64,000 bases of DNA from Ostreococcus lucimarinus (Eukaryota): NCBI GenBank assembly GCA_000092065.1, contig CP000581.1. One strand, given 5' to 3'. Each line of letters begins with the position of its first letter. Position 1 is the first letter of the stretch. Position numbers and translations under genes: made by a program. Positions 29,779-31,296 of this stretch are shown one piece after another. The notes beneath the pieces were generated by a model, which was given only the letters and a program-made list of their open reading frames with translations, was not told the origin of the DNA and did no database searches.

Positions 29779-31296
29779 ATGACGGAGACGTCGTGTAAGG
29801 GCGACCACGGGCACGAGTACGACGTCGTCGTCATCGGCGGTGGCTCCGGCGGGCTCGCCGCGGCGAAAGAAGCGGCGAAACACGGCGCGAAAACGATGTG
29901 TCTGGACTTCGTCAAGCCGAGCCCGGCGGGGACGACGTGGGGACTCGGCGGGACGTGCGTGAACGTCGGATGCATCCCGAAGAAGCTCATGCATCAAGCG
30001 GGGATCCTGGGAGAGTCGTTCAGCGATGCGCGGGAGTACGGGTGGAAACTCGCGAGCGAAGGACACGATTGGGGGAAGATGGTGGAACAGATTCAAAACC
30101 ACATCGGGTCGCTGAATTTCGGGTATCGCACGACGCTGCGAGAGAAGAACGTGACGTACGTGAACGCGTACGGACGGTTTAAGGATAAGAATACGATCAT
30201 CGCGACGAAAAAGAATGGACAAGAACAGGTGATCACGACGGATAAAGTGGTCGTCGCGGTGGGAGGACGACCGTCGTATCCCGACGCGCCGGGGGCGAAG
30301 GAATGTTGCATCACGAGCGACGATATTTTTTCCAAGCCCGAGGCGCCGGGGAAGACGCTGTGCGTGGGCGCGTCGTACATCTCGCTCGAAACCGCTGGGT
30401 TCTTGACCGCGCTTGGGTTTGACACGGCGGTGGCGATTCGATCGATTCCGCTGCGTGGATTTGATCAAGAAGTCGCGGAGAAGATTGTCAAGTACATGGG
30501 CGAGCACGGCACGCGCTTCTTACGCGATTCGCAACCGACGGTGTTCGAAAAGCAAGAGGATGGCAAGATCAAAGTAACGTTTGAAAACACCATGTTCGGA
30601 AACACGTTTGAGGAAACTTTCGACACCGTCGTGTGCGCCGTCGGAAGAGACGCGGTTACGGAAGGCTTGGACCTTCCCGCGGCTGGCGTCGAGTTCAACC
30701 CGAAGAACGGTAAAATCGCGTGCGTAGACGAGCAAACCAACGTGGATAACATTTACGCCATCGGCGACGTGCTCGACACGCGCCAAGAGCTCACGCCCGT
30801 AGCCATCAAGGCGGGTGTGCGGCTGATGCGACGCGTCTTCGCGGATACTCCGTACAAGGAAAAGATGAACTACGACCTCGTGCCCACGACTGTCTTCACT
30901 CCGCTCGAGTACGGCACGATTGGCATGAGCGAAGAGCTCGCGGTGGAGACGTACGGCGCGGATAATGTCGAGTGCTACGTGTCTTACTTCAAGCCTTTGG
31001 AGTGGACGTTGAACCACGAGGAGCACAAAGGCGTGCCCGTTCGCGGCGACAACGCGTGCTACGTCAAGCTCATCACCAATTTGGCTGACGACGAGCGCGT
31101 TGTTGGTTTCCATTACTTGGGACCGAATGCCGGGGAGGTGACGCAAGGCTACGCCGTAGCGATGAAGATGGGCGCGACGAAGAAAGACTTCGATGAGACG
31201 GTCGGCATTCACCCGACGGTTTCCGAAGAGTTTACGATTCTCGAAATCACGAAGCGCAGTGGCATCGACCCCACAAAGAAAGGCTGCTGAGGATAA
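29779..31296 (+). CDS. TXNRD: High-Mr (animal-type) thioredoxin reductase, a selenoprotein with the C-terminal Gly-Cys-Sec-Gly tail. The in-frame TGA at 31288..31290 is read as Sec.
   Basis: The N-terminal redox centre is GGTCVNVGCIPKK. FAD/NADPH pyridine-nucleotide-disulfide oxidoreductase motifs are present throughout. The ORF ends ...KKGC followed by TGA GGA TAA, which gives GCUG-stop. A SECIS-like hairpin lies about 140 nt downstream. Confidence 0.85.

Follow-up and report, generated by a model that had tools for sequence, protein, structure and literature searches.

The in-frame UGA of a thioredoxin reductase gene in Ostreococcus lucimarinus: a probable selenocysteine codon, its GUGA-type SECIS element and a post-stop hairpin

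The stretch of Ostreococcus lucimarinus DNA analysed here (64 kb in full length, referred to below as the window) contains a thioredoxin reductase (TrxR) gene, whose end may be read in two ways. A standard open reading frame call places the gene at 29779..31290 on the plus strand and yields a product of 503 aa, which ends in ...ITKRSGIDPTKKGC, i.e. with the C-terminus ...KKGC. The codons at this end are GGC TGC TGA GGA TAA (31282-31296), in agreement with the pattern GGN TGY TGA GGN stop, and decoding of the TGA as selenocysteine (Sec) gives the C-terminal sequence Gly-Cys-Sec-Gly-stop. Does the enzyme end at the UGA, or is this codon translated?

It is very probable, in our view, that the gene encodes a high-Mr, animal-type selenoprotein TrxR, in which the UGA is decoded as Sec by means of a SECIS element located in the 3'UTR. 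The selenoprotein reading is correct and already known, as the protein has been deposited as a putative selenoenzyme and TR belongs to the O. lucimarinus selenoproteome published in 2007. The sequence-only reading of this DNA, made without database searches, identified the recoded stop codon correctly. What is new relative to Lobanov et al. 2007 are the exact coordinates of the SECIS element, its covariation across about 13 orthologues and the use of an AUGA core in relatives of 57-70% identity. The less documented point, which may deserve follow-up, is a hairpin placed directly after the stop codon. The features of the locus are collected in Table 1.

Table 1. Coordinates of the TrxR gene and of the RNA structures in its 3'UTR (positions of the window)
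Feature	Position	Strand	Details
Full TrxR coding sequence	29779..31296	+	505 codons including Sec504 and Gly505; ends with UAA
N-terminal redox-active CVNVGC	29956..29973	+	aa 60-65; same motif at the aligned position in rat TrxR1
In-frame UGA (Sec codon 504)	31288..31290	+	followed by GGA (Gly, 31291-31293) and UAA (31294-31296); TGA in 26/26 algal loci
Post-stop (proximal) stem-loop	31300..31372	+	about 30 bp, base GCCACCG/CGGUGGC; folding, survey, orthologues
Second small hairpin	31374..31397	+	GCUUUCG(N10)CGAAAGC; directly after the post-stop stem-loop
Type-2 SECIS	31421..31501	+	structural scan, covariation, covariance model, generic scan
SECIS helix I	31424-31431 / 31489-31496	+	8 bp
SECIS core	31437-31440 / 31481-31484	+	G-UGA opposite UGAU
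SECIS helix II	31442-31452 / 31471-31480	+	10 bp, one bulged A
SECIS unpaired apical AAA	31454-31456	+	
SECIS mini-stem	31456-31460 / 31466-31470	+	5 bp

The enzyme and its C-terminal codons

The predicted product carries the Pfam domains Pyr_redox_2 (PF07992, 4.6e-53) and Pyr_redox_dim (PF02852, 4.8e-27). It was recognised by the NCBIfam model TIGR01438, "thioredoxin and glutathione reductase", with 669 bits against a cutoff of 475.85, and glutathione reductase models scored under their own cutoffs. The best matches among solved structures were rat TrxR1 (1h6v, E 4e-182) and human TrxR1, both with E of about 1e-182. From residue 10 onwards the alignment with the rat enzyme is collinear up to the very end and places the algal ...KKGC opposite the rat ...QSGC that precedes Sec-Gly. 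The His-Glu dyad of the HPxxxE motif is also kept, in the sequence GIHPTVSEE near the C-terminus, which is aligned to its equivalent in rat TrxR1. Three earlier claims are therefore borne out by these data, i.e. that the gene encodes a high-Mr TrxR of the animal type (TIGR01438 score, Pfam domains, rat alignment through the last Cys), that the N-terminal CVNVGC centre is present, and that the reading frame continues into TGA GGA TAA, which was found exactly at 31288-31296.

The algal protein and mammalian TXNRD1 (rat 1h6v, human 2j3n/3ean) are about 60% identical over the whole length. They have in common the FAD/NADPH and dimerisation domains, CVNVGC, a Gly-Cys-Sec-Gly tail with penultimate Sec, and a 3'UTR SECIS. 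The algal TrxR is devoid of the N-terminal glutaredoxin domain of the TGR type. In contrast to its mammalian counterpart, the algal gene has no introns and lies in a very compact genome with a convergent aldehyde dehydrogenase (ALDH) gene nearby, which ends 393 nt past the TrxR stop codon. As a side observation, the gene order EMP24, TrxR, convergent ALDH is kept in most Ostreococcus-like loci, and the downstream convergent ALDH in every locus that is long enough to show it.

An exact-sequence lookup showed that the 503-aa product is identical to XP_001415584.1 / ABO93876.1 (from a 1,152,508-bp chromosome), the former being titled [quoted passage not shown]. TR is marked "+" as a selenoprotein for both O. 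tauri and O. lucimarinus in Table 2 of Lobanov et al. 2007 (PMC2375036), where 29 selenoproteins are reported for the latter species, and TXNRD is among the most widespread Sec-containing families in algae (PMC7539508). The O. tauri protein of the same 90% cluster, OUS42553.1, is annotated as an 848-aa "hypothetical protein". The gene model behind it is probably fused or otherwise mis-modelled, perhaps because of the in-frame UGA.

Orthologous DNA was compared at loci with 57-100% protein identity, taken from independent assemblies and metagenomes that cover many samples and genera. The tail GC*G* was present in all 23 algal loci in which the C-terminus could be seen, and in 3 further independent loci (26/26 in total). 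Variation in the tail codons of these 26 loci was exclusively synonymous (Cys as TGC or TGT, Gly as GGA, GGC or GGT, stop as TAA or TAG), whereas the nucleotides beyond the second stop codon diverge freely. Since only synonymous changes occur in the tail and free divergence begins just downstream, the TGA GGN codons behave as coding sequence. Gene callers that encounter this conserved UGA produce homologues ending in ...GC, which is the case for 119 of the 120 best homologues in a collection of 5.8 billion proteins; truncation at the UGA by standard gene calls, as had been anticipated, is thus the rule.

The single exception among these 120 homologues ends in ...CCS, and Cys-for-Sec variants of TrxR exist in some lineages. 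One could therefore suppose that a Cys codon (TGC or TGT) has turned into TGA here, through faulty assembly or through mutation in this strain, and that the enzyme is in fact a Cys-type (GCCG) reductase. However, TGA was also encountered here in independent assemblies and in metagenomes, across many samples and genera, which makes this explanation scarcely credible.

A simpler alternative is that the UGA is a genuine stop codon, so that the enzyme ends in ...Gly-Cys and GGA UAA is left untranslated. The standard ORF call indeed ends there, and some termination at the UGA probably does occur beside Sec insertion, giving a truncated inactive form; such partial termination is established for mammalian TrxR1. 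As the sole fate of the UGA, termination is nevertheless highly improbable. It is at odds with the retention of GGN and a stop codon after TGA in every locus examined, with only synonymous changes in the tail and diverging nucleotides beyond it, and with the alignment to the Sec-containing TrxR1, which ends exactly one residue before Sec. The gene is, moreover, annotated as a selenoenzyme, and the family was labelled with 75Se in O. tauri, where bands at 50-55 kDa were attributed to TR (PMC2375036). The structure of the 3'UTR, described below, also speaks against a genuine stop.

The SECIS element

A structural scan of the 3'UTR revealed a type-2 SECIS on the sense strand, with its core 146 nt past the UGA. 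The non-Watson-Crick quartet is formed by G-UGA-C opposite U-GA-U, with G in place of the usual A. SECIS-shaped hairpins were detected by the same scan in most of the orthologous 3' regions, with the core 123-187 nt past the stop codon. The elements of loci L005 and L008 did not pass the strict helix rule and were placed by eye, at offsets 125 and 196, respectively.

Sequences from 13 distinct orthologues were aligned with MAFFT, i.e. without fitting to any structure. The columns that are invariant in the 13 sequences include UGA, one apical A and the 3' GA. The proposed partners could pair in 70.8% of the cells, compared with 35-42% when they were slid by 1-3 columns, and none of 500 shuffles reached the observed covariation score; the picture in a model-fitted alignment was similar. 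Helix II was paired in 83.7% of the cells, and 7 of its 10 pairs had changed on both sides. Helix I was paired only in about 51-55% in the fixed-column alignments, probably because its position shifts between genera. The absence of a SECIS from the 3'UTR had been named in advance as an observation that would tell against Sec; what was found instead is a covarying hairpin with invariant UGA, AA and GA.

A covariance model built from these elements gave one significant match in the 64 kb, namely the TrxR element (81.8 bits), the window sequence being itself part of the model. All other matches in the window had E values of 1.9 or worse, and no further selenoprotein gene was indicated by the model in the 64 kb. 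Most of its matches in other loci are likewise sequences that had been used to build it. Locus L090 is outside the model (78% identity, with a poly(A) run at the end of its contig), and its 3'UTR yielded a GUGA...CAAA...UGAU match with E 0.021, which by eye forms a complete type-2 SECIS. On the other independent loci the model, R1, gave a weak match in L092 (E 0.89) and none in L024, and the contig of L091 ends inside an AUGA-type element. A generic structural SECIS scan of both strands of the 64 kb returned four hairpins, of which only that at 31421-31501 is intergenic; the other three lie inside coding ORFs and were rejected as SECIS elements.

Two alternative cores within the 3'UTR were also considered and rejected. 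The AUGA at 31419-31422, with GAAACCAG/CUGGUUUC as helix II, is not followed by GA on the 3' strand and would enclose an apical region that is far too large. Between the AUGA at 31443-31446 and the AAA there are only 7 nt; a 3' GA in the proper place is missing, and the orthologues do not share this AUGA. Among the candidate cores, only the GUGA at 31437-31440 is invariant.

The Rfam SECIS models gave no match in 31200-31800, even in a permissive cmscan with E up to 10. This result could be taken in favour of a genuine stop at the UGA. We attribute it to the limits of the Rfam models, the core being GUGA and not the canonical AUGA; it is consistent with the report that SECISearch3 misses SECIS elements of Mamiellophyceae (PMC6627142). 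Routine pipelines thus fail twice at this locus, as ORF callers truncate the protein and Rfam misses the GUGA-type SECIS. The covarying element in the 3'UTR adds to the evidence against termination at the UGA.

The element is the same as the Ostreococcus SECIS described by Lobanov et al. [quoted passage not shown] The GUGA core and the long mini-stem distinguish it from the SECIS of mammalian TXNRD1, which has AUGA. It was also observed that the GUGA core occurs in the window, in L001-L009 and in L090, all of them Mamiellophyceae-like TrxR loci, and that L022, L023, L091 and L092 (57-70% identity) have AUGA-type SECIS-like hairpins, a weaker one being recognised only by eye in L024. The habit of placing G before the core seems to be lineage-specific even within one gene family.

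Our results support a standard eukaryotic mechanism of SECIS-directed Sec insertion, served by the GUGA-type, long-mini-stem SECIS that is typical of the genus. In such a mechanism, when the ribosome arrives at the UGA, the SECIS of the same mRNA would recruit a SECIS-binding protein, the Sec-specific elongation factor and Sec-tRNA(Sec). Sec would then be inserted, one Gly added, and translation terminated at the UAA. Electrons would pass from the CVNVGC/FAD centre at the N-terminus of one subunit to the resulting Gly-Cys-Sec-Gly terminus of the other, and from there to thioredoxin.

The trans-acting machinery and the actual insertion of Sec at this site are what we infer from the established eukaryotic Sec pathway and from the literature. 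A Pfam survey of 30 ORFs in the window identified ordinary housekeeping genes and no Sec-machinery gene, and ARAGORN found no tRNA, hence no tRNA-Sec, in the whole 64 kb; no gene of this kind is to be expected in 64 kb of a 13-Mb genome. Because the window contains neither, the claim that the organism has Sec machinery, which had been read from the gene itself, draws on published work only. There it is upheld: tRNA-Sec was shown in O. tauri (PMC2375036), and a complete Sec machinery was reported for Mamiellophyceae (PMC6627142).

Hairpins directly after the stop codon

The first structure of the 3'UTR is a long stem-loop, which starts 3 nt after the UAA and is therefore separated from the UGA by a 9-nt spacer. 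The first 80 nt after the TrxR stop fold with a minimum free energy (MFE) of -40.7 kcal/mol, with a z-score of -3.75 in the survey of the window and of -4.76 when other shuffles were used. Among the 40 post-stop regions of the window, this one has both the lowest MFE and the lowest z-score, and it is the only one that forms a single hairpin of roughly 30 bp. At all 7 loci compared, the region after the TrxR stop folds at -26 to -41 kcal/mol (z from -2 to -7), as against -11 to -15 kcal/mol (z about 0) for the matched control, the region after the stop of the convergent ALDH gene in the same spacer.

Every distinct orthologue (57-100% protein identity) has a post-stop hairpin, whose 5' end is 6-11 nt past the UGA; the independent loci L090 and L091 are no exception, and L092 has a post-stop domain of about 190 nt. 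Within Ostreococcus the base of the hairpin is always GCCACCG/CGGUGGC, and the next pairs covary. In other genera the arms differ in sequence and are mutually complementary (GCUGCUG, GUCGCC, AUCGCC, CGCCGAA, CGCCAUCC, CGCUAUGC). MAFFT and RNAalifold recovered only the basal 9 bp of the hairpin, as the upper stem is unalignable, although it always folds. For this reason the upper stem is supported by the folding of individual sequences against shuffles and matched controls, and not by column covariation.

In the 5' arm a loosely recurring GCYRCYG-like motif was noticed (window, L005-L008, L022-L024, L090-L092), which appears as GCCACCG in Ostreococcus, as GCUGCUG in L090-L092 and as related CGCC-rich arms elsewhere. 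From comparison of the arms, this motif hints at some sequence constraint beyond pairing. L001, L004 and L091 (UCUUUC/GAAAGA) also have the second, small hairpin, and L003 has it with compensatory changes (CUCUG/CAGAG).

The placement of the long hairpin allows for a different explanation of the UGA, namely that the adjacent structure promotes its readthrough by a near-cognate tRNA for Trp, Cys or Arg, with no Sec involved. A stable hairpin 9 nt after the UGA has a spacing typical of readthrough stimulators. The SRE of SELENON, which promotes readthrough of other stop codons as well (PMC6844570), provides a precedent of this kind, but it is situated inside the coding sequence, whereas the algal hairpin is in the 3'UTR. 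Near-cognate readthrough leaves unexplained the conserved SECIS with its invariant UGA, AA and GA. In addition, all characterised relatives use GCUG as their Sec active site, and a large selenoproteome is present in this organism together with Sec machinery (PMC2375036, PMC6627142). We consider such a decoding very unlikely, and maintain that the UGA is almost certainly read as Sec.

If the UGA is a Sec codon, the hairpin may have a role in its decoding. Of the eight human selenoproteins with C-terminal Sec, six, TR1 among them, have the potential for a proximal stem-loop (PSL) right after the stop codon (Cockman et al. 2019, PMC6844570), so that a potential stem-loop immediately after the stop is a further feature that the algal gene shares with mammalian TXNRD1. 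The PSLs of SELENOS, SELENOK and TXNRD1 resemble the algal structure in being stable, conserved hairpins a few nt past the stop, in mRNAs with a penultimate Sec codon. The likeness is one of structure, no similarity in sequence being expected, and in length the algal hairpin, with about 73 nt (about 190 nt at most, in L092), far exceeds the mammalian one. The PSL of SelS is not required for recoding, and its deletion raises recoding about 2.5-fold via a spacing effect on the SPUR element, while no function is known for the PSLs of TR1 and SelK (PMC6844570). With 3'UTRs of the TR1 type, Sec is inserted only in the C-terminal region, as was shown by Turanov et al. 2013 (PMC3737529).

The order of the elements in Ostreococcus, i.e. 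long hairpin, small hairpin, SECIS, recalls the order PSL, SPUR, SECIS of SELENOS, and by analogy the position of the small hairpin is reminiscent of SPUR. The post-stop hairpin may thus be a counterpart of the mammalian proximal stem-loop, and modulation of recoding is a possible function suggested by this resemblance. Speculatively, it may tune how often the UGA leads to Sec and how often to termination, or keep the SECIS close to the ribosome. A more far-reaching suggestion, which we make tentatively and with considerable doubt, is that the long and the small hairpin together represent an ancient partner of the SECIS, specific to mRNAs with penultimate Sec, and that they might raise the share of full-length Sec enzyme by acting on the ribosome at the UGA, either through slower termination or through positioning of the SECIS.

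A limited literature search found no description of this post-stop hairpin in algae. Ostreococcus is transformable, and this hairpin could offer a compact and tractable system for studies of the role of proximal stem-loops in mRNAs with C-terminal Sec.

Other genes of the window

The window has a GC content of 60.8% and is packed with intron-poor ORFs. The exact-sequence lookup identified the COQ5-type methyltransferase adjacent to the TrxR gene as XP_001415585.1. An ORF of 418 aa, located 17 kb from the TrxR gene (48565-49818, plus strand), carries a glutaredoxin domain (5.6e-12) at its C-terminus, and no in-frame TGA or SECIS-like hairpin associated with this ORF was seen.

Two further ORFs have an unusual structure. 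The start of the tubulin ORF on the minus strand (47063-48208) corresponds to position 50 of the Pfam Tubulin profile, and no entry of the protein collection has exactly this sequence. The first exon is probably located upstream, across an intron, in which case the ATG used in the ORF call is not the true start. The other is a 499-aa ORF on the plus strand (1814-3310), whose sole Pfam match is NUMOD3 (1.4e-10). This motif binds DNA and is characteristic of homing endonucleases; its presence in a nuclear algal gene is unusual.
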